This document shows positions 1-60,424 of a stretch of DNA of 64,000 nt, one piece after another (within the stretch, counting starts at the first letter, position 1; every line of letters starts with the position of its first letter). The translations under genes were made by a program, and so were the position numbers. This stretch comes from an uncultured Veillonellaceae bacterium. GTDB lineage: Bacteria; Bacillota; Negativicutes; Veillonellales; Dialisteraceae. The DNA is taken from contig CATVYJ010000005.1 in the NCBI GenBank assembly GCA_958348245.1, forward strand, positions 13,625-77,624, in the 5' to 3' direction. Below the pieces are notes generated by a model. That model did not search any database. It was given only the letters and a program-made list of their open reading frames with translations, and had not been told where the DNA came from.

Positions 1-332
1 CGAGATCGTCCCGCCAGTACTCTGCGGCGTCGGTTACTTCGTCCGCCAGTTCGCCGTCTTTGTAGATGCGGTAGCGGGGGATGTCGTGCCGGAGGTCCGC
101 TGCGGGCGCGGCGAGGCGCGGCACGGGGGAGCCCGCTTCGGTCACGTCGAGCACGGGGCAGGGCTTCCGGTTCCGCTGGGTAAAGAGAAGGAAATCAAAG
201 GCGAGGGTTTTCGGCAGGACGGCCAGATTGGCCTGAGCGTAGCCGGCGCACATGCCGCTGGTCTGGCCGGTGATTTCGCCGGTGCGGATGCGGGCGCGCA
301 CGTCCGCGGGCGAGGCAGCTGCGAGGTCCATG
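1..332 (-). CDS. DUF1445 / YcsI-like protein (putative hydro-lyase, D-glutamate cyclase-like). The start codon is inside the window (ATG at 330-332) and the gene runs off the window edge.
   Basis: Minus-strand translation MDLAAASPADVRARIRTGEITGQTSGMCAGYAQANLAVLPKTLAFDFLLFTQRNRKPCPVLDVTEAGSPVP... The SD aaaggagcaaattcc lies upstream. It is the last gene of the pxp/acc operon. This ORF is not in the track and was translated by hand. Confidence 0.55.
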
Positions 333-345
333 GAATTTGCTCCTT

Positions 346-1701
346 TCAGGTGTTTAGAATGGCTTCGAGGTGGTCTTCGAGGTCGCTGGTGTGCATATCG
401 CCCCGTCGAAAGACGGGGGTCTGGAGAATTTTTTTCTGCAGGGTGATATTGGTAAGCACCCCTTCGATCTTGAAATCGGAGAGGGCTTTTTCCATTTTTT
501 CGATGGCTTCGTCCCGCGTGGGGGCCCACACGATGAGCTTGGCGATCATGGAGTCGTAGAAGGGCGTGATGACGCAGCCCCGGTACATGGCGCTGTCTAC
601 GCGGATACCCCGGCCGAAGGGCGGCGTGTACCGCGTGAGGGTCCCCGGGCAGGGCATGAAATTATGCAGCGGGTCTTCCGCATTGATGCGGCATTCGATG
701 GCCCAGCCGTTCATGCGGATGTCCTGCTGGGTCCAGGGAAGTTTCTCTCCTGCGGCGACGGTGATCTGTGCTTTCACGAGGTCCACGCCGGTGACCATCT
801 CCGTCACGGGGTGTTCCACTTGGATGCGGGTGTTCATTTCCATGAAATAGAACTGCCCGTCGTCGGTGACGATAAATTCCACCGTGCCCGCGCCGCTGTA
901 GTCCACGGCTTTCGCGGCGAGGACGGCCGCTTCACCCATGCGTTTCCGGAGCGCGGGAGTCATGATGGGCGATGGGGATTCCTCGATGACTTTCTGGTGG
1001 CGCCGCTGGGTGGAGCAGTCGCGCTCGCCCAGGTAGACTACATCGCCGTAGTTGTCCGCCATAATCTGGATTTCCACGTGGCGCGACCGGGGGAGGTATT
1101 TCTCGAGGTACACCCCGGCGTTGCCGAAGGAGCGCTCCGCTTCCATGCTGGCCTGCCGGAGAGCCCGGGTGAGCTCGTCCGCGTCTTCTACGACGCGCAT
1201 GCCCTTGCCGCCTCCGCCGGCGGTGGCCTTGATGAGCACGGGGTAGTCGATGGCGTCGGCGGTGCGGCGCGCTTCCTCTTCGTCGCGGATGACGTCTTCC
1301 GTGCCGGGCACGACGGGGACGCCGGCGTGCATCATGGTGGCGCGGGCCATGGCTTTGTCGCCCATGCGGCGGATGGCTTCGCCGGACGCGCCGATGAAGG
1401 CGATACCGTAGTTGGCGCACACGTCGGCGAAGTCCGCGCTTTCCGAGAGGAAGCCGTAGCCGGGATGGATGGCATCCGCCTCGCACGCCCGGGCGGTCTC
1501 GATGAGGCGGGCCATGTCGAGGTAGCTCCGCTTCGCCTGCGAGGGGCCGATGCAGTATGCTTCGTCCGCGAGGCGCACGGGGAGGGAGTCCCGGTCCGCT
1601 TCGGAATAGACCGCGATGGCGGCGACGCCCATTTCGTGGCACGCGCGGATGATACGAGCCGCGATTTCGCCGCGGTTCGCGATGAGGATTTTTCTGAACA
1701 T
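346..1701 (-). CDS. accC: biotin carboxylase (acetyl-CoA carboxylase biotin carboxylase subunit family)
   Basis: 451-aa ORF MFRKILIANRGEIAARIIRACHEMGVAAIAVYSEADRDSLPV... with the ATP-grasp biotin carboxylase signature (GGGGKGMRVV, EMNTRIQVEHPVTE). Confidence 0.9.
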   Translation of the reverse strand: MFRKILIANRGEIAARIIRACHEMGVAAIAVYSEADRDSLPVRLADEAYCIGPSQAKRSYLDMARLIETARACEADAIHPGYGFLSESADFADVCANYGIAFIGASGEAIRRMGDKAMARATMMHAGVPVVPGTEDVIRDEEEARRTADAIDYPVLIKATAGGGGKGMRVVEDADELTRALRQASMEAERSFGNAGVYLEKYLPRSRHVEIQIMADNYGDVVYLGERDCSTQRRHQKVIEESPSPIMTPALRKRMGEAAVLAAKAVDYSGAGTVEFIVTDDGQFYFMEMNTRIQVEHPVTEMVTGVDLVKAQITVAAGEKLPWTQQDIRMNGWAIECRINAEDPLHNFMPCPGTLTRYTPPFGRGIRVDSAMYRGCVITPFYDSMIAKLIVWAPTRDEAIEKMEKALSDFKIEGVLTNITLQKKILQTPVFRRGDMHTSDLEDHLEAILNT

Positions 1702-1713
1702 GGTCCCACCTCC

Positions 1714-2163
1714 TCAGCTGGCGGCGGGGCTCTTTTTCACGCGGAAGAGGGGCTGGCCGAATTCCACGAAGTCCCCGTCTTTCACGAGGATGTCCGTGAT
1801 GTCTCCTTCCACTTCGGCTTCCACTTCGGAGAAAATTTTCATCGCTTCGAGGACGCACACCACGGAGCTGGGCGTGACGTGGGAGCCGGGCTTCACGAAG
1901 GGCGGGGCTTTCGGGTCGGGCGCGCTGTAGAAGGTGCCCACCATGGGGGCGGTGATGTCCACGGTCTGCGCGGATTCGGCCGGCGTGGGAGCGGGAGCGG
2001 CGGCTGCGGGCGCTGCCGGAGCGGGCGGCACGGCAGCCGGGGCGGAGAGGACCGCGGGGGCCGCGCCCTTCTCGAGGACCACGTGCCCGTCGGAGTAGGA
2101 CAGGTCAATTTTTGTGAGCGGCGAAGCTTCGAGGAGTTTCATCAGTTCTTTGATTTCATTCAG
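1714..2163 (-). CDS. accB: biotin carboxyl carrier protein (BCCP). Probable TTG start after the SD ggaggg; the track ORF extends to 2208.
   Basis: C-terminal biotinyl domain with the EAMKI/EAMKIFSEVEAE motif (biotin-attachment lysine context). N-terminus ...LSLNEIKELMKLLEAS as in BCCPs. The stretch between is Ala/Pro-rich linker. Confidence 0.8.
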   Translation of the reverse strand: MNEIKELMKLLEASPLTKIDLSYSDGHVVLEKGAAPAVLSAPAAVPPAPAAPAAAAPAPTPAESAQTVDITAPMVGTFYSAPDPKAPPFVKPGSHVTPSSVVCVLEAMKIFSEVEAEVEGDITDILVKDGDFVEFGQPLFRVKKSPAAS

Positions 2164-2185
2164 GGACAGCAAGTCAATCCCTCCT

Positions 2186-3184
2186 TTATAACATGCCTGC
2201 CACGGCAATTTTCACATTTTCCATGCACTGCTCCATGTCGAGGTAGAGCCGCTCCCCTTCTTCCTGGCTGATGAGGCGGAAGTAGAGGCGGTCCCCCGGC
2301 TTGAGCTGCGCCGCGCGGGCCGTATCCACGAGGGAGACCTGCGCGATGACCGGATAGCCTGCGGTGGTCTGGTGGTCCGCCATGAGGACGATGGGCTGGC
2401 CGTTCGGGGGGACCTGCACGGTGCCGAGGGGCGACGCTTCGGAGATCATCTCGAGGGGCTCCTTCAGGGCGAGCTTCGGCCCGGCGAGGCGGTAGCCCAT
2501 GCGGTCGGACTGGGTGGTGACGCGGAAGTCGGAATTGAAGAAATCGTACCGCGCCTGCTCGGTGAAGGCGTCGTACTGGAGGCCGGCCATGACGCGGAGA
2601 GGCTTGTGCAGGCGCTCCGCCGTGATGTGGCCCGGGCCGACGTGCCAGCGGGCCTGCTTGAAGGAGTGGGCCCCGCCGGAGAGCAGGTTGAACATCATCT
2701 TCTGCCCGTATTCGCCGGGCTCTCTCGTGGGGAGCACGTCTCCCTTTTCGAGGGCGCGCCCTTCCCAACCGCCAAAGCCGCCCCGGAGCGAGGTACTGCG
2801 GCTCCCCATGACGGGGGCGATGTCGTAGCCGCCGGATACGGCGAGGTAGGCCCGGCAGCCCAGGCGGCACGAGCCGAAGCGGAGGATGGCCCCCGCCTTC
2901 ACCGCCACAGGGCGGCGCATGGGCACGGCCTGCCCGTCGATGATGGGGGCGAAGTCCCCGCCGGTGATGGCGATGAGCGTGTCCGAGGTAAATTCGATGG
3001 TGGGTCCCGTGAGGTTGATCTCGAGAGCCGCTTCGTATTCGTCGTTGCCGGCGAGGATATTCGCCAGCCGGAGAGAGTAGACGTCCATCGCGCCGGAAGG
3101 GATGACGCCGATTTTCTGCCAGCCGTACCGGCCGCCGTCCTGCACGGTGGTCATGAGGCCGGGGCGTATGATGTGGAGGCTCAT
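2186..3184 (-). CDS. pxpC: 5-oxoprolinase subunit C (KipA / allophanate hydrolase subunit 2 family)
   Basis: Internal start MSLHIIRPGLMTTVQDGGRYGWQKIGVIPSGAMD... (typical PxpC N-terminus). The start ATGA-overlaps the pxpB stop. The upstream part of the 466-aa track ORF is Arg/Pro-rich junk. Confidence 0.85.
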   Translation of the reverse strand: MSLHIIRPGLMTTVQDGGRYGWQKIGVIPSGAMDVYSLRLANILAGNDEYEAALEINLTGPTIEFTSDTLIAITGGDFAPIIDGQAVPMRRPVAVKAGAILRFGSCRLGCRAYLAVSGGYDIAPVMGSRSTSLRGGFGGWEGRALEKGDVLPTREPGEYGQKMMFNLLSGGAHSFKQARWHVGPGHITAERLHKPLRVMAGLQYDAFTEQARYDFFNSDFRVTTQSDRMGYRLAGPKLALKEPLEMISEASPLGTVQVPPNGQPIVLMADHQTTAGYPVIAQVSLVDTARAAQLKPGDRLYFRLISQEEGERLYLDMEQCMENVKIAVAGML

Positions 3185-3906
3185 GGCTGTCCCTTCCTTT
3201 CTGCGAGGTATTCCTCTTCGGAAATGGCGTGGAATTTCACCAGGTCGCCCGCGTGGAGGAGGCTCGGGTCCGGATCGCTGGGACGGAAGAGCTCCACCGG
3301 GGTGCGGCCGATGAGCTGCCAGCCGCCGGGGGTGGAGATGGGATAGCCCCCGGTCTGGCAGCCGGCGATGCCGATGCTCCGCGCGGGGATGGACGTGCGG
3401 GGTGTCTGGCGGCGCGGCGCGGCGATGCGCGGGTCCATGCCGCCCATGTAGGGAAATCCCGGACAGAAGCCGATCATGTACACGAGGTACTGCGGCGCGG
3501 TGTGGAGGCGGATCACGTCGCCCACGGTGAGATGATTGTACTCCGCTACGAAGCCGATGTCCGGGCCGTACTCGCCGCCGTAGCATACGGGGATGTCCAC
3601 CACCCGGGGCGGCGTGGTCTCTCCCGCGCCCGCGGAGGGGATGGCCTCCTCCGTGAGGCGGTCCGACACGAGCTGGAAGGCGGATTTCCCCGAGCGGCCC
3701 CCGCGCTGCTTCACCGTGAAGGGATTGTAGTACACGGCGAGGCTCGTGTAGGAAATGACCGTCTCCACGAGACCGGGGAAGGGATGGGCGTCCAGCTCAT
3801 CCGCGAGGGCTTTTACCGCGTGGTGCACTTCGGGGCTGATGGCGTCGCCGAAGCGGACGAGGAGGCCCGCTTCTCCCAGCGGCAGAATGGTATAGTCGTG
3901 TTTCAC
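3181..3906 (-). CDS. pxpB: 5-oxoprolinase subunit B (KipI / allophanate hydrolase subunit 1 family)
   Basis: 241 aa, MKHDYTILPLGEAGLLVRFGD... with the cyclophilin-like AHS1 domain pattern. Confidence 0.85.
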   Translation of the reverse strand: MKHDYTILPLGEAGLLVRFGDAISPEVHHAVKALADELDAHPFPGLVETVISYTSLAVYYNPFTVKQRGGRSGKSAFQLVSDRLTEEAIPSAGAGETTPPRVVDIPVCYGGEYGPDIGFVAEYNHLTVGDVIRLHTAPQYLVYMIGFCPGFPYMGGMDPRIAAPRRQTPRTSIPARSIGIAGCQTGGYPISTPGGWQLIGRTPVELFRPSDPDPSLLHAGDLVKFHAISEEEYLAERKGQP

Positions 3907-3919
3907 GGGCGTCCCTCCT

Positions 3920-5107
3920 TTACATGAAGAGCTTCGGGAGCTGTTTCATCAGGGTGAGGCCGCCCATGTAGGCGGTCATGGCCACCACCACCGCGCCGAA
4001 GGCGGTCATCCAGAGCGGGTGTTTGTAGTCGCCCACGATGGATTTCTTGTGCGCCGCCACGAGCATCACGAGGAGCGTGATGGGGAGGATGAGGCCGTTC
4101 AGCGTGCCGACGACGATGAGGGTCTTTACCGGCTGGCCGACCACGGCGAAGACGAAGGTGGAGAAAATGATGAAGGCGATGACGAACCAGCGGTAATTCG
4201 CGTCGATCCATTTGTTGAACGTGCGGATGAAGGAAACGGAGGTGTACGCCGCGCCCACCACGGAGGAGATGGCCGCCGCCCACATGACGACGCCGAAGAC
4301 TTTATAGCCCGCGTTGCCCGCGGCGAGACGGAAGACGGACGCCGGAGGATTTGCGCTGTCCAGAGCGAGCCCCGCGCTCACCACGCCGAGGGTGGCGAGG
4401 AAGAGGAGCACGCGCATCACGCCCGTGAGGCACACGCCGGTGACGGCGGAGCGGGAAATTTCCGGCAGGGATTCTTTGCCGGTGATACCCGCGTCGATGA
4501 GGCGGTGTCCGCCGGAGAAGGTGATGTAGCCGCCTACGGTGCCGCCCACGATGGTGACGATGGTCATGGGGTCAATGGTATCGGGGATGATGGTTTTCTC
4601 GATGGCTTCTCCCACGGGCGGCGCGGAGGAAATGGCCACGTAGAGCGTGAGGGCGATCATGACGAAGCCCGCGCCCTGAGTGAATTTATCCATGAGTCGG
4701 CCCGCTTCCTTCACGATGAAGATGGAAATGGCGATGACCGCGCTGATGACCGCGCCGGTCACATTGTCCAGGCCGAAGAGCACATTGAAGCCCATGCCCG
4801 CGCCGGCGATGTTGCCGATATTGAAAGCCAGACCGCCCATGACGATGAGCAGCGCCACGAGGTAGCCCAGTCCGGGGAGGACCATATTCGCCACATCCTG
4901 CCCGCGCTTGCCGGAAATGCCGATGACGCGCCACACGTTGAGCTGCGCCCCGATGTCGAGGATGATGGTGGTGAGGATGACGAAGCCGAAGCTCGCCCGG
5001 AGCTGCTCCGTGAAGACCGTGGTCTGCGTGAGGAAGCCCGGCCCGATGGACGATGTGGCCATGAGAAACGCCGCGCCCAGAAGGACGCTCCAGTCAAATT
5101 TTTTCAT
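3920..5107 (-). CDS. NRAMP-family-like membrane protein (YcsG-like) encoded inside the pxp operon
   Basis: Internal start MKKFDWSVLLGAAFLMATSSIGPGFLTQTT... It is polytopic with a GPGFL motif. The position between pxpA and pxpB matches B. subtilis ycsG. The long upstream extension of the track ORF is rejected. Confidence 0.7.
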   Translation of the reverse strand: MKKFDWSVLLGAAFLMATSSIGPGFLTQTTVFTEQLRASFGFVILTTIILDIGAQLNVWRVIGISGKRGQDVANMVLPGLGYLVALLIVMGGLAFNIGNIAGAGMGFNVLFGLDNVTGAVISAVIAISIFIVKEAGRLMDKFTQGAGFVMIALTLYVAISSAPPVGEAIEKTIIPDTIDPMTIVTIVGGTVGGYITFSGGHRLIDAGITGKESLPEISRSAVTGVCLTGVMRVLLFLATLGVVSAGLALDSANPPASVFRLAAGNAGYKVFGVVMWAAAISSVVGAAYTSVSFIRTFNKWIDANYRWFVIAFIIFSTFVFAVVGQPVKTLIVVGTLNGLILPITLLVMLVAAHKKSIVGDYKHPLWMTAFGAVVVAMTAYMGGLTLMKQLPKLFM

Positions 5108-5154
5108 GGGAAATTCCCCCTCTCTTTTTTGAAATGGTTTGTATGTCAATTCCC

Positions 5155-5919
5155 TTACCGGTCGATAAAGGAAACGATTTCGATGCCTTCTTCCGTGAGG
5201 CGCTCCCGAATGCGGCGGGCGAAGGCGAGCGCTTTCGGGCTGTCCCCGTGAATGCACACCGTGTCCGCCCGGACGGGGATGACTGCGCCCGAGAGAGCCG
5301 TCACCGTGCCGCGCTCCACCATGTCCAGCACCTGCTCGATGGCCGCGTCGTCGTCGGTGATCATCGCCCCGGGCTGCGTGCGCGGCGTGAGCGACCCGTC
5401 GTCCTGATATGTGCGGTCCGCGAAAACTTCGCTCGCCGATGCGAGCCCGATGGCGTCCGCCGCTTCGATGAGGCAGCTCCCTGCAAGGCCGTAGAGGACG
5501 AGCGACGGGTCCTCGTCGTACACTGCGCGGGCGATGGCGTCGGCGAGCGCCCGGTCCTTCGCGGCCATGTTGTACAGCGCGCCGTGAGGCTTCACGTGCT
5601 GGAGCCGGCCTCCCTCCGCGCGGACGAAGGCGGCGAGCGCGCCTACCTGGTAGAGCACGAGGTCGTACGCCTCCTCGGGCTTCGTGGGAATCGTGCGCCG
5701 GCCGAAGCCCGCCAGATCCATCAGCCCCGGATGGGCCCCGACAGCCGCGCCGCGCTCCATGGCGAGCCGCACCGTGCGGTGCATTACGAAGGGGTCGCCC
5801 CCGTGCATGCCGCACGCCACATTCGCCGAGCTCACATATTTCAATACTTCGCTGTCATTGCCGATGGTGTACGCCCCGAAGCTCTCGCCGAGATCGCTGT
5901 TCAGATCGATTCGTTTCAT
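5155..5919 (-). CDS. pxpA: 5-oxoprolinase subunit A (LamB/YcsF family)
   Basis: 254 aa, [43 protein letters not shown]... This is the canonical LamB/YcsF N-terminus. Confidence 0.9.
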
Positions 5920-6324
5920 ACGGTCCTCCTGTACGAAAAAAGCCGCTCCCCGTGAGGAAGCGGCGTCTCTGCCGAAACGGAAAACGCCGGGGATGGGTCC
6001 GCGGCGTCTCTGCTCATTGTGAAATTGGAAACAGAAAGACGCCGCATGCCATGCACACAGCGCCTTTGCTTTTGGGAAGTAAATTTATGTACCGTATTAT
6101 ACGGGAGGGCCTGCGCCAGTGTCAACGGCGGGGGCCGGCACCGCCGGTATCCGCAGGCGGCCGGTTTTACAGTCGCTGGAGGCCGCTGCGGGAGAAATCC
6201 AGTTCATAGATACAGATAGAGGAGGGATTCCTCTTTATGGTAAAGAGAATACGGCAGGGCAGCGGGCGCGGCTATGGGGATTTCCTATGACGAATATAGC
6301 CGTCCGGTATGAAAAGGCCGGGCA

Positions 6325-6333
6325 TGCTATAAT
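6325..6333 (+). promoter_or_regulatory. extended -10 element (TGcTATAAT) upstream of nfo
   Basis: tgctataat lies about 25 nt upstream of the nfo SD ggagg. No clear -35. Confidence 0.35.
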
Positions 6334-6358
6334 GGGAAAAACGAAAACGGAGGCAAAT

Positions 6359-7195
6359 ATGTTTATCATCGGCTGTCATCTGTCTGTCTCGAAGGGGTAT
6401 CTCGCCATGGGGAAAGAGGCGACCGCGATCGGGGCGAATACGTTTCAGTTTTTCCCGCGCAATCCCCGGGGCGGCGCGTCGAAGCCGCTGGATGCGGACG
6501 ACGTGGAGGGGCTGCGCGCGTGGATGGAGGCGCATCATTTCGGGCCCATTCTCTGCCATGGGGCGTACACCATGAACGGCGCGGCGGCGAAGGAGGAGAC
6601 GCGGGACTTCGCGTTCCGCGCCATCCGGGAGGATCTGGCGAAGGCGGGCCGGCTGCCCCGGTGCCTCTATAATTTCCATCCCGGCGCGCATGTCAAGCAG
6701 GGCGCGGAGGCGGTCATCCCGCGCATCGCGGACATGGTGAATCAGGCCATGGATCAGGACCCCATCCCGCAGTACGTGCTCCTCGAGACCATGGCGGGCA
6801 AGGGGACGGAAGTGGGCCGCACCTTTGAAGAACTGGCGGCTATCATCGACCGGGTGGAGCGGAAAGACCGCATCGGCGTGTGCCTCGACACGTGCCACGT
6901 GTACGACGCGGGCTACGATATCGCAGGCGATCTGGACGGCGTGCTCCGCGCCTTCGACGCGATCATCGGCCTCGACCGCCTCCACGCGGTGCATCTCAAT
7001 GACGACAAGAATCCCCTCGGCAGCCACAAGGACCGGCACGAAAAAATCGGGAAGGGCACCCTCGGTACGGAAGCCCTGGCGCGCGTCATCAATCATCCCG
7101 CACTCCGGGACCTGCCCTTCTATCTGGAAACGCCGAACGAACTCCCGGGCTACGCCGCGGAAATCGCCCTTCTGAAGTCTTTGCGGAAGGAATGA
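6359..7195 (+). CDS. nfo: endonuclease IV (AP endonuclease, TIM barrel)
   Basis: Internal ATG after the SD ggagg. MFIIGCHLSVSKGY...HGAYTMN...ETMAGKGTEVGRTFEEL...CLDTCHVYDAGYDI...HLNDDKNPLGSHKDRHEKIG matches Nfo motifs. Confidence 0.9.
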   Translation: MFIIGCHLSVSKGYLAMGKEATAIGANTFQFFPRNPRGGASKPLDADDVEGLRAWMEAHHFGPILCHGAYTMNGAAAKEETRDFAFRAIREDLAKAGRLPRCLYNFHPGAHVKQGAEAVIPRIADMVNQAMDQDPIPQYVLLETMAGKGTEVGRTFEELAAIIDRVERKDRIGVCLDTCHVYDAGYDIAGDLDGVLRAFDAIIGLDRLHAVHLNDDKNPLGSHKDRHEKIGKGTLGTEALARVINHPALRDLPFYLETPNELPGYAAEIALLKSLRKE

Positions 7196-30039: not shown

Positions 30040-30115
30040 TCCTGAATAGCTCAGTTGGTAGAGCAATCGGCTGTTAACCGATCGGTCGTAGGTTCGAGTC
30101 CTACTTCAGGAGCCA
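30040..30115 (+). tRNA. tRNA-Asn (anticodon GTT)
   Basis: tcctgaatagctcagttggtagagcaatcggctGTTaaccgatcggtcgtaggttcgagtcctacttcaggagcca cloverleaf with a 7-bp acceptor stem and CCA end. Confidence 0.9.
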
Positions 30116-30116
30116 T

Positions 30117-30191
30117 GGCCTGTTCGTCAAGTGGTTAAGACACCGCCCTTTCACGGCGGGTTCGGGGGTTCGAATCCCCCACAGGTCACCA
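30117..30191 (+). tRNA. tRNA-Glu (anticodon TTC)
   Basis: ggcctgttcgtcaagtggttaagacaccgcccttTCacggcgggttcgggggttcgaatcccccacaggtcacca. Confidence 0.85.
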
Positions 30192-30200
30192 TTTTTTTAT

Positions 30201-30276
30201 GGGCGATTAGCTCAGCTGGGAGAGCGCCTGCCTTACAAGCAGGATGTCAGCAGTTCGATCCTGTTATCGCCCACCA
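30201..30276 (+). tRNA. tRNA-Val (anticodon TAC)
   Basis: gggcgattagctcagctgggagagcgcctgcctTACaagcaggatgtcagcagttcgatcctgttatcgcccacca. Confidence 0.9.
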
Positions 30277-44579: not shown

Positions 44580-44637
44580 AAGGGGCGCTCCGGCGGGCGC
44601 TCTTTTTCATAGAACAACAAAGAAAGAAGGAATGACC

Positions 44638-45306
44638 ATGGGGAAAGGATTATTCATCACCGGCACCGATACGGACATCGGCAAGACCTACGTGACGGCG
44701 CTGCTCGTGAAGACGCTCCGCAGCGCGGGGTACGACGTGGGCTATTACAAGGCGGCCATCAGCGGGGCGGACTCCGTCGCGGAAAGCGACGCGGGCTTTG
44801 TAAACCGCTTCGCGCATATCGGCGAGCCGGAGGACATGCTCCTCTCGTATCTGTATAAAAACGCCGTGTCGCCCCATCTGGCGGCGCGCATCGAAGGGCA
44901 TCCCGTGGAGAAGGACGTGATTCTCGCGGGATGGCAGCGCGCGGCGGCGAAATATCCCTACGTCACCATGGAGGGGAGCGGCGGCATCTGCTGCCCCATC
45001 CGGCACGACGAGACCGCCGTGTACTACCTGGAGGATATCATCCGCTGGCTGCGCCTGCCCGTGCTCATCGTGGCCGACGCGGGCCTGGGCACCATCAATC
45101 ACGTGGCGCTGACCGCGTTTTATATGAAAGAGCGCGGCCTCACCGCGAAGGGCGTCCTCCTCAATAACTGGAAGGGCGGCCTCATGGAAGAAGACAATGT
45201 GAACATGATCGAGGAAATGACGGGCCTCCCCGTGCTGGCGAAAATCCGCCGGGGCGACACGGCGCTCGACGCGGACCCGGCGCTCCTGGCGTCGCTTTAC
45301 GAATGA
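44638..45306 (+). CDS. bioD: dethiobiotin synthetase
   Basis: MGKGLFITGTDTDIGKTYVTALL (P-loop), 223 aa. The start is the second ATG, after agaaagaagg. Confidence 0.85.
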   Translation: MGKGLFITGTDTDIGKTYVTALLVKTLRSAGYDVGYYKAAISGADSVAESDAGFVNRFAHIGEPEDMLLSYLYKNAVSPHLAARIEGHPVEKDVILAGWQRAAAKYPYVTMEGSGGICCPIRHDETAVYYLEDIIRWLRLPVLIVADAGLGTINHVALTAFYMKERGLTAKGVLLNNWKGGLMEEDNVNMIEEMTGLPVLAKIRRGDTALDADPALLASLYE

Positions 45307-45316
45307 GGAGGACAGC

Positions 45317-46687
45317 ATGGACGAAAAACAGACCTGGCCGGAGATCGACTGGGAAAAAGAGGATGAGAAATATATCTGGCACCCGGCGCAGCAGATGAAG
45401 GACGCGGAAGTCTTTCCGCCGGTGGTGATCGACCACGCGGAGGGGCTCTACCTGTACGACACGAAAGGGAAAGCCTATCTCGACATCATCAGCTCCTGGT
45501 GGTGCAATCTCCTCGGCCACTGCAACCCGGAGATCAACGAAGCCGTCAAGAAGCAGGTGGACGAGCTGGAGCACGTGATCTTCACGAATTTCTCCCACCG
45601 GCCCGCCATCGAGCTCTGCCGCGAGCTCGCGCCGCTCCTGCCGGAAGGGCTGTGCCGGTTCAGCTTCCACGACAACGGGTCTTCCGCGGTGGAAGCGGCC
45701 CTGAAGATGGCCTTCCAGTACCATTACCAGACGGGCCATCCCGAGCGGCAGCGCTTCATGTGCCTCGCCGACTCCTACCACGGCGAGACCATCGGCGCGC
45801 TCTCCGTGGGCGGCATGGACATGTACGCGAAGATTTATCAGCCCATGATGATGCACAACATCCATTTCGACGGGCTCGACTGCTTCCGCTGCCCCTACGG
45901 GAAGACCCGCGATACCTGCGCGTGCGAATGCTTCGAGAGCGCGGAGCAGGCCTTTGAGACATACGGGAAGCAGACCGCCGCGGTCATCGTGGAACCCATC
46001 CTGCAGGGCGCGGCGGGCATGCGCATCTATCCCGCGGAGTACCTCAGGAAACTCAGGAAGCTCTGCGACGCATACGGCGTCCTCCTGATCGACGACGAGA
46101 TCGCCGCGGGCTTCGGCCGCACGGGGAAACTCTTCGCCATCGAACACGCCGGCATCAGCCCGGACATTCTCTGCACCTCCAAAGGGCTCACCGGCGGATA
46201 CCTCCCCATGTCCATCACCATCACTACGGACAGGATTTACAACGCCTTCTACGACGACTACGGCACGCACAAAGCCTTCGTGCACAGCCATACCTACGCG
46301 GGCAATCCCATCGGCTGCGCCGCGGCGCTCGCCGTGCTGCGCATCCTGAAGCGCGACCATATCCTCGAGAAAGCCGCCGAAGTGGGCGTCTATCTCCATG
46401 AGGAGCTGGAGAAGGCCCTCGGCGGCCATCCGAATATGGGCGAGATCCGGCACATCGGCCTCATCAACGCCATGGAGCTCGTGGAAGACCGGAAGACGAA
46501 GAAGCCTTTTGATCCGAAGCGGCGCATCGGCTGGCAGATTTTCCGCCGCGCCATGGCCCGGGGCCTCGTGCTCCGTCCCATGGGGGATGTGATCTATTTC
46601 AACCCGCCTCTCACGCTCGATAAGGAAACGGCGAAGAAGGCGGTGGACCTCTGCCGGGAATCGGTGGAGGATGTGCTCGGAAAGTAA
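45317..46687 (+). CDS. bioA: adenosylmethionine-8-amino-7-oxononanoate aminotransferase
   Basis: 456 aa class-III aminotransferase, ...LLIDDEIAAGFGRTGKLFA... Confidence 0.85.
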   Translation: MDEKQTWPEIDWEKEDEKYIWHPAQQMKDAEVFPPVVIDHAEGLYLYDTKGKAYLDIISSWWCNLLGHCNPEINEAVKKQVDELEHVIFTNFSHRPAIELCRELAPLLPEGLCRFSFHDNGSSAVEAALKMAFQYHYQTGHPERQRFMCLADSYHGETIGALSVGGMDMYAKIYQPMMMHNIHFDGLDCFRCPYGKTRDTCACECFESAEQAFETYGKQTAAVIVEPILQGAAGMRIYPAEYLRKLRKLCDAYGVLLIDDEIAAGFGRTGKLFAIEHAGISPDILCTSKGLTGGYLPMSITITTDRIYNAFYDDYGTHKAFVHSHTYAGNPIGCAAALAVLRILKRDHILEKAAEVGVYLHEELEKALGGHPNMGEIRHIGLINAMELVEDRKTKKPFDPKRRIGWQIFRRAMARGLVLRPMGDVIYFNPPLTLDKETAKKAVDLCRESVEDVLGK

Positions 46688-47193: not shown

Positions 47194-48357
47194 ATGATGG
47201 ACACTCTGGCTCAGAACAGCCATCTGTTTGATGAACTGTTTCAGGGCGTATACGGCGTCGCGGACATCGGCATCCTGTCCATGTTCGTCATCGGCTTTAT
47301 CCTGATGTTCCTCGCCGTCAGATACGACTATGAACCGATGCTGCTCTTCCCGATGGGCGTCGGCTGTATTCTGGCCAACATCCCCGGTCACTATGCCGTA
47401 CTGCAGGAACCGGGCGCGGAAGGCTTCCTTTTCGTTCTCTACAAAGCAGGCATTGCCAATGAACTTTTCCCGGTCATGATCTTTATCGCCATCGGCGCGA
47501 TGTGCGAATTCAGCCCGCTTATGAGAAAACCCTACGTGATGTTCTTCGCGGCGGCTGCGCAGTTCGGTATCTTCATGACGGCGTTCCTCGCGGCGCTGGT
47601 AGGCTTCCCCTTCAACCAGGCGGCCTCCATCGGCATCATCGGCGCGGCTGACGGCCCGACCACCATTTTCGTCGCTTCCCGTTATGCGCAGGAAATGCTC
47701 GGACCGTTGTCCGTAGCGGCGTACTGCTACATGTCCCTCGTACCGGTCATCCAGCCCCCGATCATCAAGCTGCTCACCACGAAGAAAGAACGCCAGATCC
47801 GCATGCCCTTCACCGGCGACACCCCGGTATCTGACCGCGCTCTCTTCATTTTCCCGCTGATGATCGTCATGGTCGCCGGCATCGTGGCTCCCATGTCCGT
47901 ACCGCTCATCGGCGCCCTCATGTTCGGCAACCTGCTGAAAGTGTCCGGCTGCACGGATCAGCTCGCGAACTGCGCGAAGGATGACCTGTCCAACCTCGTC
48001 ACCCTGTTCCTCGGTCTGGTCGTAGGCTCCACCATGACGGCGGAAAACTTCCTGACCTTCGACGTGTTCAAGATCCTCTGCCTCGGCGCGGTGGCCTTCG
48101 TATTCGATACGGCAGGCGGCGTCCTCTTCGCAAAGATCCTGAACCTCTTCCTCGCGAAGAAGATCAACCCCATGATCGGCGCGTGCGGCATCTCCGCATT
48201 CCCCATGTCCGGCCGTGTTATCGCTAAAATGGCGCTGAAAGACGATCCCACGAACTTCATCGTGCAGGATGCCATCGGCGTCAACGTAGCCGGCCAGATC
48301 GCATCCGTCGTCGCAGGCGGTCTCGTTGTCTGCATGATTCCGATGCTGTCCAAGTAA
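47194..48357 (+). CDS. Na+-translocating decarboxylase beta subunit (OadB/GcdB/MmdB family), paralog A1
   Basis: 387 aa, ...AASIGIIGAADGPTTIFVASRYA...LVPVIQPPIIKLLTTKKERQIRM...FGNLLKVSG...KINPMIGACGISAFPMSGRV... These are the hallmark OadB motifs (compare AAAIGIIGGADGPTAIY, LIQPPIMKALTT..ERKIRM, INPLIGSAGVSAVPMAARV). Confidence 0.8.
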   Translation: MMDTLAQNSHLFDELFQGVYGVADIGILSMFVIGFILMFLAVRYDYEPMLLFPMGVGCILANIPGHYAVLQEPGAEGFLFVLYKAGIANELFPVMIFIAIGAMCEFSPLMRKPYVMFFAAAAQFGIFMTAFLAALVGFPFNQAASIGIIGAADGPTTIFVASRYAQEMLGPLSVAAYCYMSLVPVIQPPIIKLLTTKKERQIRMPFTGDTPVSDRALFIFPLMIVMVAGIVAPMSVPLIGALMFGNLLKVSGCTDQLANCAKDDLSNLVTLFLGLVVGSTMTAENFLTFDVFKILCLGAVAFVFDTAGGVLFAKILNLFLAKKINPMIGACGISAFPMSGRVIAKMALKDDPTNFIVQDAIGVNVAGQIASVVAGGLVVCMIPMLSK

Positions 48358-48372
48358 GGAGGCCTTTCATAC

Positions 48373-48492
48373 ATGGAACCGACAAGTGCAGCTCTTTTCC
48401 AGATGGTGGTCTGCGTACCGCTCATGTTCGTCGTCATCGGCATTTTCGTTCTGCTCACCAAGGGCCTGACGAAACTGTTCCCGGCGAAATAA
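48373..48492 (+). CDS. 39-aa single-TM peptide, OadG (gamma subunit) N-terminal-anchor-like. It is below the ORF-track size cutoff.
   Basis: MEPTSAALFQMVVCVPLMFVVIGIFVLLTKGLTKLFPAK, SD aaggagg 10 nt upstream. Compare the OadG N-terminus ...[41 protein letters not shown]. Confidence 0.6.
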   Translation: MEPTSAALFQMVVCVPLMFVVIGIFVLLTKGLTKLFPAK

Positions 48493-48630
48493 TCCGGCTG
48501 GAATTCTGAAACATTCGGAATGAGGGGGGCCCTCGAAAGCCTTCCGCGTCCCTCAAGGCGCGCTCCCGCCTTTCTTCCGGGAAAGCGCGGGAACACACCT
48601 CTTTTACCTGAAAAGGCGGTGTAAATCCCA
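48493..48630 (+). promoter_or_regulatory. conserved structured intercistronic spacer (nested hairpins + U-rich tail) between the mini-peptide gene and the Dcu gene. It is a candidate attenuator or RNA-processing site.
   Basis: gaggggggccctc, then cgcgcuCCCGccuuucuuCCGGGaaagcgcg, then acacaccucuuuuacc. It is about 95% identical to 51665-51804, more than the flanking coding DNA. Confidence 0.45.
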
Positions 48631-49941
48631 ATGGATATTTCGACTCCCGCTCTTGCCTCCATCATCGTACTGGTGGCAATCGTCGTATTCTCCTGCTTCC
48701 GCGATATCAACGTAGGTATCCTCGGCACGGCAGGGGGCCTTCTGGTCGGCATGATGTTTGCCGGCATGAAAATCAGCGAAGTCTACAAAGGCTGGCCGCT
48801 GTCCCTGTTCATGATCCTCGTGGGCGTTACGTTCATGTTCTCCGCCGCGCAGGTGAACGGCACCATGGAGAAATTCTCCGCGGTGTGCGTCCGTCTCGCC
48901 AAGGGCAACGTGGCTCTCATCCCGATCATTCTCTTCGTTCTCGTGACCTTCATCACCACCATCGGCCCCGGCAACATTGCCTCCACGGCCCTGATGGCTC
49001 CCATGTGCATGGCCATTGCAGGCCGCATCGGCCTCTCCCCGTTCTGCATGACGCTGCTCGTCGTCGGCGCGGCAAACGGCGCGGCCCTGTCTCCTTTCGC
49101 TCCGACCGGCATCATCTCCAACGGCCTCATCGCCCAGTGGGCGCCCCAGGTGGGCATCCCCACGGAGGAACTGTCCGGCATCGCCTGGAAGATTCACTGG
49201 AACTCTGAAATCGTACAGAGCGTCGTCAACTTCGGCGGCTTCTTCCTCACCGGCGGCCTCGCCTGGATGAGCAAGGCCAAGAGCGGCGGCGCGGACTTCG
49301 ACATCGACTCCATCGCTCCGAAGCCGGAACCCTTCGACTGGAAACAGAAGTACACCCTCTTCACGATGCTCGTCCTCGTGTGCGGCGTCATTTTCTTCAA
49401 ACTCGACGTAGGCATGCTCGCCTTCTGCATCGGCACCACCTTCATCCTCTTCAACATCGCGGATGACGGCGAAGCCGTGAAGAAAATGCCCTGGGGCGTC
49501 ATCGTCATGGTCTGCGGCATGTCCGTCCTGATCAACGTCATGGATAAGGCGGGCGGCCTGAACGCCCTCGTCGACATGATCGCCGTCGTATCCAACGGCA
49601 CGACCATCACCGGCGTCGTAGGCTTCATCGCGGGCCTGCTCTCCGCATACTCCAGCTCCTCCGGCGTCATCATGCCCATGTTCCTCAGCATGGTGCCGGG
49701 GCTCCTTGAAGCGGTGAATACCGTCGATGCGGACCACGCGGTCCGTCTGGCATCCGCCATCGACATCGGCGCTCACCTCGTCGATACGTCCCCGCTGTCC
49801 ACGCTGGGCGCGCTGTGCATCGCCAACGCGGTCACCGAAGACAAGGGCATTCTCTTCCGCAATCTGCTCCTGTGGGGGCTCTCCATGTCCGTCGTAGGCG
49901 GCGTCGTCTGCTACGTGGCCTTCGGTCTGCTCGGCCTGTAA
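48631..49941 (+). CDS. Dcu-family (DcuA/DcuB-like) anaerobic C4-dicarboxylate transporter, paralog B1
   Basis: 436 aa polytopic. It matches the DcuA/B N-terminal pattern (IIVLVAIVVFSCFRD.NVGILGTAGGLLVG versus DcuA VELIIVLLAIFLGARLGGIGIGFAGGLGV), a central ...TIGPGNIAS...LSPFAPTG, and the C-terminus. Confidence 0.6.
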   Translation: MDISTPALASIIVLVAIVVFSCFRDINVGILGTAGGLLVGMMFAGMKISEVYKGWPLSLFMILVGVTFMFSAAQVNGTMEKFSAVCVRLAKGNVALIPIILFVLVTFITTIGPGNIASTALMAPMCMAIAGRIGLSPFCMTLLVVGAANGAALSPFAPTGIISNGLIAQWAPQVGIPTEELSGIAWKIHWNSEIVQSVVNFGGFFLTGGLAWMSKAKSGGADFDIDSIAPKPEPFDWKQKYTLFTMLVLVCGVIFFKLDVGMLAFCIGTTFILFNIADDGEAVKKMPWGVIVMVCGMSVLINVMDKAGGLNALVDMIAVVSNGTTITGVVGFIAGLLSAYSSSSGVIMPMFLSMVPGLLEAVNTVDADHAVRLASAIDIGAHLVDTSPLSTLGALCIANAVTEDKGILFRNLLLWGLSMSVVGGVVCYVAFGLLGL

Positions 49942-50371: not shown

Positions 50372-51532
50372 ATGGACACTCTGGCTCAGAACAGCGGTCT
50401 GTTTGACGAGCTTTTCCAGGGCATTTACGGACTGGCAGATGTGGGCATCCTCGCGATGTTCGTCGTCGGCTTCATCCTCATGTTCCTCGCCGTCAGATAC
50501 GACTATGAACCGATGCTGCTCTTCCCGATGGGCATCGGCTGCGTTCTTGCAAACATTCCCGGACACTACGCAGTGCTCCAGGATCCCGGAAGCGAAGGCT
50601 TCCTGTACGTTCTCTACAAAGCGGGTATCGCAAACGAACTTTTCCCGGTCATGATCTTTATCGCCATTGGTGCAATGTGCGAATTTGACCCGCTTATGAG
50701 AAAGCCGTTCGTCATGCTCTTCGCAGCAGCGGCTCAGTTCGGTATCTTCATGACTGCGTTCCTCGCGACGCTCCTCGGCTTCCCCTTCAACCAGGCGGCA
50801 GCCATCGGCATCATCGGCGCAGCTGACGGCCCGACCACGATCTTCGTCGCTTCCCGCTATGCGCAGGAAATGCTTGGACCGTTGTCCGTAGCGGCGTACT
50901 GCTACATGTCCCTCGTACCGGTTATTCAGCCTCCGATCATCAAACTGCTCACCACCAAACATGAACGCAAGATCCGTATGCCGTTCACCGGTGAAGCTCC
51001 GGTTTCTGATCGCGCACTCTTCATTTTCCCGCTGATGATCGTCATGGTCGCCGGCGTTGTAGCTCCTATTTCCGTACCGCTCATCGGCGCTCTCATGTTC
51101 GGCAACCTGCTGAAGGTATCCGGCTGCACCGACGACCTGGCAGACTGCGCGAAGGATGACCTGTCCAACCTCGTCACCCTGTTCCTCGGCCTGGTCGTAG
51201 GCTCCACCATGACGGCGGAAAACTTCCTGACCTTCGACGTATTCAAGATCCTCTGCCTCGGCGCGGTCGCATTCGTATTCGATACCGCCGGCGGCGTCAT
51301 CTTCGCGAAGATCGTCAATCTGTTCCTGACCAAGAAGATCAACCCGATGATCGGCGCATGCGGCATCTCCGCATTCCCGATGTCCGGCCGTGTTATCGCC
51401 AAGATGGCGCTGAAAGAAGATCCGACGAACTTCATCGTCCAGGATGCTATCGGCGTCAACGTAGCTGGTCAGATCGCCTCCGTTGTTGCCGGCGGCCTCG
51501 TGCTCTGCATGATCCCGCTGCTGTCTAAATAA
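50372..51532 (+). CDS. Na+-translocating decarboxylase beta subunit (OadB family), paralog A2
   Basis: 386 aa. About 85% identical to A1. From about residue 100 it is identical to A3 in protein and, over more than 600 bp, in DNA. Confidence 0.8.
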   Translation: MDTLAQNSGLFDELFQGIYGLADVGILAMFVVGFILMFLAVRYDYEPMLLFPMGIGCVLANIPGHYAVLQDPGSEGFLYVLYKAGIANELFPVMIFIAIGAMCEFDPLMRKPFVMLFAAAAQFGIFMTAFLATLLGFPFNQAAAIGIIGAADGPTTIFVASRYAQEMLGPLSVAAYCYMSLVPVIQPPIIKLLTTKHERKIRMPFTGEAPVSDRALFIFPLMIVMVAGVVAPISVPLIGALMFGNLLKVSGCTDDLADCAKDDLSNLVTLFLGLVVGSTMTAENFLTFDVFKILCLGAVAFVFDTAGGVIFAKIVNLFLTKKINPMIGACGISAFPMSGRVIAKMALKEDPTNFIVQDAIGVNVAGQIASVVAGGLVLCMIPLLSK

Positions 51533-51544
51533 GGAGGTCTTAGT

Positions 51545-51664
51545 ATGAATCCTGTAAGTGCAGCTCTTTTCCAGATGGTGGTCTGCGTACCGCTCATGTT
51601 CGTCGTTATCGGCGTTTTCGTTCTGCTCACCAAGGGCCTGACGAAAATGTTCCCGGCGAAATAA
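51545..51664 (+). CDS. 39-aa OadG-anchor-like mini-peptide (copy 2)
   Basis: MNPVSAALFQMVVCVPLMFVVIGVFVLLTKGLTKMFPAK, SD aaggagg. Confidence 0.6.
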   Translation: MNPVSAALFQMVVCVPLMFVVIGVFVLLTKGLTKMFPAK

Positions 51665-51804
51665 TCTGGCTGGAATTCTGAAACATTCGGAATGAGGGGG
51701 GCCCTCGAAAGCCTCCCGCGTCCCTCAAGGCGCGCTCCCGCGCTTTCTCACGGGAAGGCGCGGGAACACACCTCTTTTTACCTGAAAAGGTGGTGTAAAT
51801 CCCA

Positions 51805-53595: not shown

Positions 53596-53774
53596 AGGCG
53601 GGCAATGCCCAAAACCGGCCAGTGTACCGTATGATACACACCGGAAAAGAAGACGGGCGAGCGGCGCAGTTTACAGATCTCATTCCTATTTTTCTTCCGC
53701 GCGCTCCCGCCTCGGGCAGGCAGCCGGTTCAGGCAGGGGACATCCCCGCCATTTCTCACGACGGACTCCGCATG

Positions 53775-53800
53775 GGCGGGCCCGCTTTCTTTTCAAGGTG
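53775..53800 (+). promoter_or_regulatory. hairpin + U-tract (attenuator-like) just upstream of the B3 RBS
   Basis: catgggcgggcccgctttcttttcaagg, then ggtggtgtaaag RBS. Confidence 0.4.
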
Positions 53801-53813
53801 GTGTAAAGTTTTA

Positions 53814-60194: not shown

Positions 60195-60209
60195 TTGGAG
60201 GGATAAGTT

Positions 60210-60329
60210 ATGAATCCAGTAGCAGCATCCCTTTTCCAGATGGTGGTATGCGTACCGCTGATGTTCCTGGTCATCCTCATTTTCGTGGGTCTCACGAAGC
60301 TCCTCACGAAGATGTTCCCCGCAGAATAA
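60210..60329 (+). CDS. 39-aa OadG-anchor-like mini-peptide (copy 3)
   Basis: MNPVAASLFQMVVCVPLMFLVILIFVGLTKLLTKMFPAE, SD ggaggg. Confidence 0.6.
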   Translation: MNPVAASLFQMVVCVPLMFLVILIFVGLTKLLTKMFPAE

Positions 60330-60424
60330 TTCTGCCCGATCCTTTATTTTCCACATAAAGGCGTGCCCCCGTATCCGCGAGGGTGCGGGGACCCACCTCT
60401 TCCATGCAAAGGTGGTGTAAACCA

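Follow-up and report, generated by a model that had tools for sequence, protein, structure and literature searches.

A seven-gene pxp operon with its own biotin carboxylase and biotin carrier genes in an uncultured Dialisteraceae bacterium

Why should the genes for a biotin carboxylase and its carrier protein lie inside an operon for a 5-oxoprolinase-type enzyme? This question is raised by the left end of a stretch of 64,000 nucleotides from an uncultured Veillonellaceae bacterium (GTDB family Dialisteraceae; assembly GCA_958348245.1, contig CATVYJ010000005.1, positions 13,625 to 77,624 of the forward strand), the whole of which is referred to here as the window. Seven genes on its minus strand encode, in order of transcription, PxpA, an NRAMP-like transporter (YcsG), PxpB, PxpC, an AccB-type biotin carboxyl carrier protein (BCCP), an AccC-type biotin carboxylase (BC) and a DUF1445 protein. 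The explanation favoured here, with a probability of about 0.45, is that this operon serves a self-contained, biotin-coupled Pxp (5-oxoprolinase-type) system that would open a lactam at the cost of ATP. Within this explanation, synteny, gene fusions and the mobile modules give good support to the partnership of BC/BCCP with PxpB and PxpC (PxpBC), and the four proteins very probably work together.

Annotation pipelines label such a module piecemeal, as '5-oxoprolinase subunits', 'acetyl-CoA carboxylase subunits', 'NRAMP metal transporter' and 'putative hydro-lyase', and these labels contradict one another as well as the urea carboxylase/allophanate hydrolase naming used in Acinetobacter. In the comparative evidence, the seven genes behave as one mobile functional unit. 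Its range includes gut and rumen Selenomonadaceae, food lactobacilli, where it is carried by plasmids, and replicons of Klebsiella and Acinetobacter with a link to metal limitation by the host, so that its true substrate bears on the turnover of pyroglutamate and D-glutamate in fermented foods and in the gut.

Gene content and packing of the operon

The seven genes, their order and their strand had been proposed in an earlier note on this DNA, and are borne out by Pfam and NCBIfam profile searches of the window. The first gene, pxpA (positions 5155 to 5919, minus strand, as are all seven), encodes a 254-residue protein of the LamB/YcsF family (PF03746, 342 bits; NF003814, 375 bits against a cutoff of 226), which is presumed to be the hydrolase or lactamase subunit. 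It is followed by the gene for a ycsG/pxpT/mumT-type NRAMP-like transporter (3920 to 5107; 395 residues; PF01566, 69 bits) and by pxpB (3181 to 3906; 241 residues from a GTG start), which encodes the carboxyltransferase subdomains C/D (CT_C_D; PF02682, 230 bits) and passes the PxpB equivalog TIGR00370 with 217 bits (cutoff 146). The pxpC-like gene (2186 to 3184; 332 residues) encodes a member of the 'biotin-dependent carboxyltransferase family' with the subdomains A/B (CT_A_B; PF02626, 317 bits; TIGR00724, 312 bits). The product of accB (1714 to 2172; 152 residues from a TTG start) contains the biotinylation motif EAMK and scores 136.5 bits with TIGR00531 (cutoff 115.2), while that of accC (346 to 1701; 451 residues), an ATP-grasp protein with three BC domains and intact GGGGKGM and EMNTRIQVEH motifs, scores 690 bits with TIGR00514 (cutoff 626.5). 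The last gene, for a putative hydro-lyase of the DUF1445 family (PF07286, 'D-Glu_cyclase'), is cut by the window edge, which leaves the first 110 of 262 codons (1 to 331; NF003969, 140 bits for the fragment). On identical metagenome contigs the full 262-residue protein scores 233 bits with PF07286; its relatives of solved structure are 3DB9 and 2PIF, both UPF0317 proteins. Independent gene calls on these contigs give the same seven products, including the 152-residue AccB.

Overlapping or touching stop and start codons had been described throughout the unit, a claim that holds only for pxpB and pxpC, which overlap by 4 nt (ATGA). The other intergenic spacers, from pxpA towards the DUF1445 gene, measure 47, 13, 13, 12 and 14 nt, with a Shine-Dalgarno sequence in each. 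Upstream of pxpA, a promoter-like site (TTGACA, 18 nt, TATAAT; 6096 to 6125, minus strand) matches the sigma-70 consensus at 12 of 12 positions and is the sole full match within 1-6600. This tight packing behind a consensus promoter agrees with the proposal of a single operon. The unit extends past 1-5919 in both directions, with the promoter upstream and DUF1445 running off the left window edge, and consists of exactly seven genes; downstream of DUF1445, the identical contigs carry a convergent MacB/FtsX ABC transporter pair, followed by alkaline phosphatase, OmpH and Spore_YtfJ. No regulator gene adjoins the operon in the window or on the identical contigs.

The operon contains BC, the carboxyltransferase subdomains A-D and BCCP as four proteins, and in this respect its domain set is that of urea carboxylase in split form, as the earlier note had recognised; the Pfam names for the PxpC and PxpB families are 'carboxyltransferase subdomains A/B' and 'C/D', respectively. 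At the same time, the operon keeps the pxpA-ycsG-pxpB-pxpC order known from the PxpABC systems (pxpA-ycsG-pxpB-pxpC in Bacillus subtilis, pxpTABC in Corynebacterium glutamicum, pxpAGBC in Clostridioides difficile); PxpA and PxpB of the window pass the NCBIfam Pxp models, and the best solved relative of PxpC is Escherichia coli YbgK. Canonical pxpABC, together with ycsG/pxpT, is required for the use of 5-oxoproline in B. subtilis and C. glutamicum. These canonical systems differ from the window operon in having no BC, BCCP or DUF1445, and the substrate phosphorylation assumed for PxpBC involves no biotin.

Another known relative is mumTLUHC, the 'manganese and urea metabolism' operon of Acinetobacter baumannii (Juttukonda et al. 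2016, PMC5050338; domain annotations in PMC2848557), in which the labels urea carboxylase, allophanate hydrolase and manganese importer have been given to MumC, MumH and MumT, respectively, and which has mum-like counterparts in 88 SEED genomes (PMC5050338). Both operons combine, in a single unit, an NRAMP-like transporter, LamB/YcsF, DUF1445, PxpB-like and PxpC-like proteins, BC and BCCP. In mumTLUHC, however, the gene order is different, PxpB and PxpC are fused (MumH), and so are BC and BCCP (MumC, of another BC lineage with 46% identity), whereas in the window all genes are separate, no MumR regulator is encoded and a promoter-proximal terminator-like hairpin is found instead. The functional labels of the mum genes were derived from genetics and old annotation rather than from enzymology. 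With the window operon, the mum/Pxp-BC type, whose architecture has already been published, gains a new member in which the genes are unfused.

Distribution of the module on chromosomes and plasmids

When looked up across genomes, the gene order was found to recur in Megamonas, Pectinatus and Selenomonas and to be rearranged in Domibacillus and Paenibacillus. Genome scans with AccC recovered the same seven-gene order in a 'Candidatus Megamonas' metagenome-assembled genome (MAG; 60-84% identity per protein), and an Acidaminococcaceae MAG follows it from the first gene to the sixth, where the contig ends. The complete genome of Pectinatus haikarae (CP116940.1) reads Nramp-PxpA-PxpB-PxpC-BCCP-BC-DUF1445, and a Selenomonas contig PxpB-PxpC-BCCP-BC-DUF1445. 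Two Domibacillus species (loci L052 and L058; numbers of this kind denote the loci compared) show pxpB-pxpC-accB-accC-DUF1445 followed by pxpA-ycsG, and a Paenibacillus (L060) shows pxpB-pxpC-pxpA-accB-accC. A metagenome scan with a DUF1445 alignment added two loci with the same order as the window (L086, L089) and four rearranged ones (L090, L091, L098, L102). In addition, an 85%-identical relative (L174/L175) retains the window's gene order among quite different flanking genes. In protein searches, the closest relatives of AccC are metagenome proteins (82-90% identity), followed by those of Megamonas funiformis (77-79%), Pectinatus (69-71%), Selenomonas ruminantium (66%) and Sporomusa (65%), a series that would point to Selenomonadaceae as the source of the window.

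Through these rearrangements pxpB-pxpC-accB-accC remains contiguous while pxpA, ycsG and DUF1445 shift, as seen in the window and in L030, L006, L086, L089, L090, L091, L098 and L102, and the same contiguity is observed in both Domibacillus loci, in P. haikarae, in the 85%-identical relative and in Selenomonas. The lone exception among the linked clusters is the Paenibacillus locus, in which pxpA lies between pxpC and accB. In Proteobacteria the four parts are fused in pairs (PxpB with PxpC, and BC with BCCP), and in urea carboxylase all four modules are fused. Such contiguity, together with pairwise fusion and the full fusion of urea carboxylase, is the pattern typical of the subunits of one enzyme.

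The module is also mobile. A tblastn search of PxpC against plasmids identified an insertion sequence (IS)-flanked module, composed of pxpB, pxpC-like, BCCP, BC, hydro-lyase, PxpA and NRAMP genes, on pLPBLS41_3, a mobilizable L. plantarum plasmid of 50 kb. The same 6.3-kb module, with at least 98.5% identity, is present on 13 Lactiplantibacillus/Levilactobacillus plasmids and complete on 10 of them. On one mobilizable plasmid of 30.5 kb, pUCCLB556_C of L. brevis (L176), it is accompanied by a BioY biotin transporter and a biotin-protein ligase (L176, 19906-21462). No classical carboxyltransferase (accA/accD or other) is listed in the PLSDB gene tables of pLPBLS41_3 and pUCCLB556_C, which are incomplete; PxpB/PxpC are thus the only carboxyltransferase-like partners found for the BC/BCCP of these two plasmids. 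As BC/BCCP is useless without a carboxyl acceptor enzyme, PxpB/PxpC are its sole candidates in the mobile units. The BC of the plasmid module is 51% identical to AccC of the window, as compared with 46% for the fused BC of Klebsiella. The latter is encoded on an IncFIB plasmid (L169) that carries a GntR gene and a five-gene form of the module, with NRAMP, PxpA, DUF1445, a 527-residue CT_C_D+CT_A_B fusion and a 581-residue BC+biotinyl fusion, a mumTLUHC layout that was confirmed by Pfam. DUF1445 homologues occur on 93 Klebsiella plasmids, and the neighbourhood was inspected for one. The recurrence of the arrangement across families and on plasmids makes it more than a product of chance.

Several variants and neighbours of the module were observed along the way. 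In the 85%-identical relative, the gene directly upstream of pxpA (L174/L175, 4137-5333) encodes a 398-residue protein resembling the RuBisCO large subunit, and is not found at that position in the window. A group of high-GC loci (L104, L106, L126, L132, L148, L151, L154) contains DUF1445, pxpB, pxpC, a gap of about 1.4 kb and pxpA; according to Pfam, this gap is occupied by a class-III aminotransferase in L148. BC/BCCP is absent from these loci, which represent another variant of the DUF1445-Pxp core. In Sporomusa (L173, 1381-10897; L178, 1-8799), PxpB-PxpC precede PxpA-PxpB-PxpC-BCCP-DUF969-DUF979-BC and a methyl-accepting chemotaxis protein, with no DUF1445 or NRAMP gene. One of these clusters (L173) continues with a pyroglutamyl peptidase, and in the one Sporomusa cluster compared, the PxpB/PxpC pair that precedes BCCP is the nearer to that of the window (51-52% versus 37-42% identity). 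A short Pelosinus contig (L041) carries DUF969/DUF979-like membrane proteins, BC, a chemoreceptor-like gene and a pyroglutamyl-peptidase-like gene. Near the plasmid-borne module, asnB is present both on pUCCLB556_C and on the L. plantarum plasmid. Beside the mum-like operon of Klebsiella (L169, 1832-4112) there is a DUF1989 gene together with a BC/biotinyl gene that abuts an IS1 element; DUF1989 is presumably a family linked to urea carboxylase, and the segment seems to be what is left of a genuine urea- or guanidine-carboxylase cluster.

Proposed chemistry and competing explanations

The chemical steps, the substrate and the role of DUF1445 are what we infer from this arrangement, and would run as follows. 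AccC would carboxylate the biotin of AccB with ATP and bicarbonate. Carboxybiotinyl-AccB would then dock on PxpB-PxpC, where the carboxyl group would be passed to the amide nitrogen of the lactam, most likely 5-oxoproline. PxpA would hydrolyse the activated ring, and the N-carboxy product would lose CO2. The net conversion of lactam + ATP + 2 H2O into amino acid + ADP + Pi would equal the stoichiometry of an ATP-dependent 5-oxoprolinase. The NRAMP-like protein may import the substrate or a metal cofactor, and the DUF1445 hydro-lyase may handle related glutamate/5-oxoproline species, possibly the D-form. The N-carboxylation chemistry is proposed tentatively, at somewhat less than even odds; in the literature searched, which mostly excluded subscription papers, no paper proposing a biotin-dependent 5-oxoprolinase or lactam carboxylase was found.

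Two known systems are informative about such a reaction. A 2026 cryo-electron microscopy study showed MSMEG_0435-0436, the mycobacterial PxpC/PxpB homologues, in complex with an acyl-CoA carboxylase through the BCCP domains of the latter; the BCCP-biotin in MSMEG_0435, a stand-alone PxpC homologue, was described as 'positioned to participate in a carboxylation reaction' (PMC13012033). The pocket that holds the biotin matches the urea-carboxylase active site. This system differs from the window operon in that the BCCP belongs to acyl-CoA carboxylase, the effect is inhibitory and no PxpA, DUF1445 or dedicated BC/BCCP has been described. Urea carboxylase/amidolyase (Kluyveromyces lactis 3VA7, 5I8I) transfers the carboxyl group from carboxybiotin to an amide nitrogen and leaves hydrolysis to a separate activity, as proposed here, but it is a single polypeptide in the order BC, A/B, C/D, BCCP with an amidase-type allophanate hydrolase as partner.

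As to the substrate, the earlier suggestion of an amide or lactam can be narrowed: the gene context favours 5-oxoproline, and urea fits poorly. In partial matches to the urea carboxylase model TIGR02712, AccC scores 549, PxpC 202, PxpB 34 and AccB 25 bits (whole-protein cutoff 1304). Among solved structures, PxpC is closest to E. coli YbgK (199 bits), ahead of K. lactis urea carboxylase (3VA7, 150 bits) and MSMEG_0435 (129 bits). With the strict equivalog NF045499 it reaches 263 bits, below the cutoff of 500, and it passes the broader TIGR00724, the '5-oxoprolinase/urea amidolyase family' model. No allophanate hydrolase of the amidase signature family is encoded in the operon or within 10 kb. 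The Pxp models passed by PxpA and PxpB, the proximity of PxpC to YbgK, this lack of an allophanate hydrolase and the pyroglutamyl peptidase of Sporomusa together speak for 5-oxoproline or a close lactam as the substrate and not for urea, and we give this choice slightly better than even odds. An insertion of about 20 residues in PxpC (around 150-195) was considered as a marker of the biotin link and discarded, since Firmicute-type clusters, linked and unlinked alike, contain it and the linked versions of the plasmids and of Klebsiella lack it.

The substrate of YcsG is disputed in the literature, where 5-oxoproline uptake and Mn2+ import have both been put forward; a ycsG homologue is required for the use of 5-oxoproline in C. 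glutamicum. The NRAMP-like protein of the window and 17 homologues from related loci, including L167 and the MumT-like protein of L169 (Klebsiella), contain invariant GPGF and VGGY motifs at what we take to be the positions of the metal-binding DPGN and MPH motifs of canonical NRAMPs. Judged from these residues, the transporter would fit a non-metal substrate and would be hard to reconcile with the reported Mn2+ import and manganese phenotypes. A phmmer search detected no relative of this transporter in the PDB. Regarding DUF1445, the family is named after mammalian D-glutamate cyclase, which also contains DUF4392, and the activity was assigned to neither domain in the study consulted.

A number of observations weigh against the favoured explanation. 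Among the 19 DUF1445 loci with at least 6 kb on both sides, pxpB/C are present in 18, pxpA in 15 and a ycsG-like gene in 5, but accC in only 2, so that DUF1445 with PxpBC(A) forms a broad core to which BC/BCCP is a minority add-on. PxpC relatives with 46-51% identity are found without accBC (L097, L133, L160 and a Bacillus badius plasmid), which implies that BC/BCCP in cis is optional, and among the compared clusters no sequence feature of PxpC separates the accBC-linked from the unlinked. The PxpABC of E. coli, B. subtilis and C. glutamicum work with no operon-encoded BC/BCCP. In A. baumannii, growth on urea needed mumC, and not mumH, mumL or mumU (PMC5050338); the dispensability of mumH, which encodes the PxpBC fusion, beside the need for mumC, which encodes BC-BCCP, is a misfit with a simple obligate partnership. 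Finally, the scores of AccB and AccC exceed the cutoffs of the NCBIfam equivalogs for genuine acetyl-CoA carboxylase subunits, and every AccC homologue inspected in Selenomonadaceae and Sporomusa (Negativicutes) is pxp-linked, no separate housekeeping accBC having been found there; shared use of the pair by acetyl-CoA carboxylase is possible in Selenomonadaceae.

Canonical pxpABC operons with no BC/BCCP, and the majority of DUF1445-pxp clusters with no accBC, are also in line with a PxpABC that works without biotin and is tied to BCCP in a regulatory or indirect way. According to this proposal, PxpBC would sequester BCCP-biotin and coordinate carboxylation with glutamate or nitrogen status, in the way that binding of MSMEG_0435-0436 to the mycobacterial LCC complex lowers propionyl-CoA carboxylase activity (PMC13012033). 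However, a regulator of acetyl-CoA carboxylase needs no BC/BCCP of its own on a small plasmid that also carries BioY and a biotin ligase, and the four genes are contiguous (bar the Paenibacillus locus), pairwise fused in Proteobacteria and fully fused in urea carboxylase. We consider a regulatory tie unlikely.

A split urea carboxylase/amidolyase, in which BC/BCCP and PxpBC would carboxylate urea or a small amide and PxpA or DUF1445 would hydrolyse the product, is how the mum operon has been interpreted. The match of the domain set with urea carboxylase and the urea-carboxylase-type remnant (DUF1989 gene and truncated BC/biotinyl protein) that adjoins the Klebsiella mum-like operon are compatible with this activity, which is nevertheless decidedly improbable for the window. 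Deletion of mumH had no effect on growth on urea (PMC5050338), and the name 'allophanate hydrolase' for the MumH-type family is an old misannotation. It has also been reported that Kip/Pxp-type proteins lack several residues important for urea carboxylation, an activity that MSMEG_0435-0436 did not show (PMC13012033). In the window operon itself there is no amidase-type allophanate hydrolase, PxpB passes the PxpB equivalog and PxpC is nearer to YbgK than to urea carboxylase, while the Sporomusa variants sit with a pyroglutamyl peptidase.

It might be argued instead that accB-accC encode housekeeping acetyl-CoA carboxylase subunits that lie in the pxp operon by coincidence and, in Selenomonadaceae, are perhaps the only copy and serve fatty-acid synthesis. 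Besides the equivalog cutoffs and the pxp linkage of all inspected close Negativicutes homologues of AccC, a tblastn search revealed no second accB/accC in the 64-kb window, the small span of which makes this a weak result. The idea that AccC is of the urea-carboxylase type had to be given up, as profile scores favour the acetyl-CoA carboxylase type (690 bits with the accC model versus 549 with the urea-carboxylase model). Yet a bystander role is very unlikely. Neither fab nor accA/accD genes are found in the window or within 10 kb past its edge, and BC/BCCP travels with pxpB-pxpC as a unit, which sustains the original argument that the pair is not a set of bystander genes. The linkage survives rearrangement across families, the pair is carried with Pxp on Lactobacillaceae and Klebsiella plasmids, and in L. 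pentosus this BC+BCCP has been reported as an extra copy beside pxpB/pxpC (PMC12427679).

The phylogeny of AccC agrees with a specialised pair. In a neighbour-joining tree with 100 bootstraps, not a maximum-likelihood tree, which contained no Negativicutes housekeeping AccC, the window and L030, L086, L006, L089, L087, L090 and L091 form one clade (93% bootstrap), separate from Bacillaceae, Paenibacillaceae and cyanobacterial AccCs and apart from those of spoIIIA-accBC-nusB clusters, the housekeeping type of context seen at the three Bacilli AccC loci whose neighbours were inspected. Seven of the eight clade members are seen beside pxp genes, the eighth (L087) being a short contig that shows accC and DUF1445 only. 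Plain identity was tried as a divider between specialised and housekeeping AccCs and failed, as both are 56-67% identical to AccC of the window. Further pxp-linked BCs fall outside the clade, in Domibacillus, in L102 (with Pelosinus) and in the Paenibacillus locus; the presence of several BC lineages beside pxpBC fits a functional need for 'a BC/BCCP' rather than one historical accident. A similar relationship is known from free-standing Firmicutes accB-accC pairs, in which BC and BCCP genes of the acetyl-CoA carboxylase type adjoin a different carboxyl-acceptor enzyme: the pair of L010 lies in a propionyl-CoA-carboxylase-type cluster, as judged by open reading frame lengths and N-terminal sequences and not by Pfam, and that of L180 beside a two-subunit pyruvate carboxylase. 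Unlike PxpB/PxpC, these acceptor enzymes have the classical carboxyltransferase fold and a known substrate.

A supply of carboxybiotin from BC/BCCP to the OadB paralogs of the window had been hinted at in the earlier note; three such genes for OadB-type membrane decarboxylase subunits are present, and no other biotinyl protein is seen in the window. This supply is hardly credible, since the OadB genes lie at least 41 kb away on the other strand in OadB + MatC-like pairs of their own, none of the related modules in the genomes and plasmids examined carries OadB, and OadB-type pumps obtain carboxybiotin from substrate decarboxylation, so that an ATP-driven BC supply would be a futile cycle.

The biotin-coupled Pxp system favoured here may be taken further. 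It could be that all Pxp '5-oxoprolinases' are biotin-dependent lactam carboxylase-hydrolases, in which biotin carboxylase, and not PxpBC, spends the ATP. PxpBC would load the lactam nitrogen with CO2 taken from carboxybiotin, and PxpA would hydrolyse the activated ring; the pxpABC of E. coli and B. subtilis would borrow housekeeping AccB/AccC, while operons like that of the window carry their own. This generalisation is doubtful as it stands. It would, nonetheless, explain the absence of an ATP-binding domain from PxpA, PxpB and PxpC, in none of which one was detected with Pfam, the BCCP-biotin in the pocket of the mycobacterial PxpC homologue and the gain and loss of BC/BCCP genes beside closely related pxpBC. 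The earlier note took it as given that PxpABC works without biotin, which is assumed and not demonstrated; ATP use by PxpBC has likewise been described as 'assumed' (PMC13274462). If the proposed chemistry is true, lactams would be a new substrate class for biotin-dependent carboxylases, and there would be a concrete, testable answer to the question of how ring opening by Pxp-type 5-oxoprolinases is coupled to the hydrolysis of ATP. If it is wrong, the locus is merely a further copy of an already catalogued operon. The locus is of value for the clean case that comparison makes for assigning its biotin part to the Pxp enzyme, a case that opens the ATP coupling of this widespread enzyme family to a direct test.

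The leader region and other features of the window

The promoter of the operon is followed by a structured leader of about 170 nt (fold of -70.3 kcal/mol, z = -4.76), in which a terminator-like hairpin with a U-run (5942 to 5964, minus strand) sits just upstream of the pxpA ribosome-binding site. The leader region (5920-6125, minus strand) contains two copies of the direct repeat GCAGAGACGCCGC and a segment complementary to both, which makes alternative leader pairings possible. It matches no Rfam family. Hairpins with a U-run are also found in promoter-proximal position before the clusters L030, L086, L089 and L090, all of which have no regulator gene. On these sequence features, the leader is a candidate attenuator. 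A motif shared by the leaders, GGCRAWGRNGC, was considered as a protein- or ligand-binding site and rejected, as it corresponds to the A-tract that pairs with the terminator U-tract.

A different element is found elsewhere. Upstream of the pxp genes in L052, L058, L097, L098, L100, L133 and L166, a palindrome close to GTTCCGAAATTCGGAAC occurs in one or two copies; the clusters concerned are those of Bacilli and several low-to-mid-GC metagenome loci. It is probably a KipR-type operator, and is absent from the lineage of the window. On the B. badius plasmid, an IclR-family regulator adjoins the pxp genes.

In the remainder of the window, three pairs (47194-49941, 50372-53118 and 59034-61738) each combine an OadB-type subunit (Na+-decarboxylase beta subunit) with a MatC_N/CitMHS dicarboxylate carrier, and a fourth MatC_N/CitMHS carrier gene stands alone (53622-55127). 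No alpha, gamma or biotin-carrier gene is seen beside these pairs in the window. Directly upstream of the first OadB gene, a class-III aminotransferase (BioA-like) and a BioD-like gene (AAA_26) occupy 44632-46687 and probably function in biotin synthesis, in a window rich in biotin-dependent functions. Three tRNA genes lie in tandem at 30040-30273.

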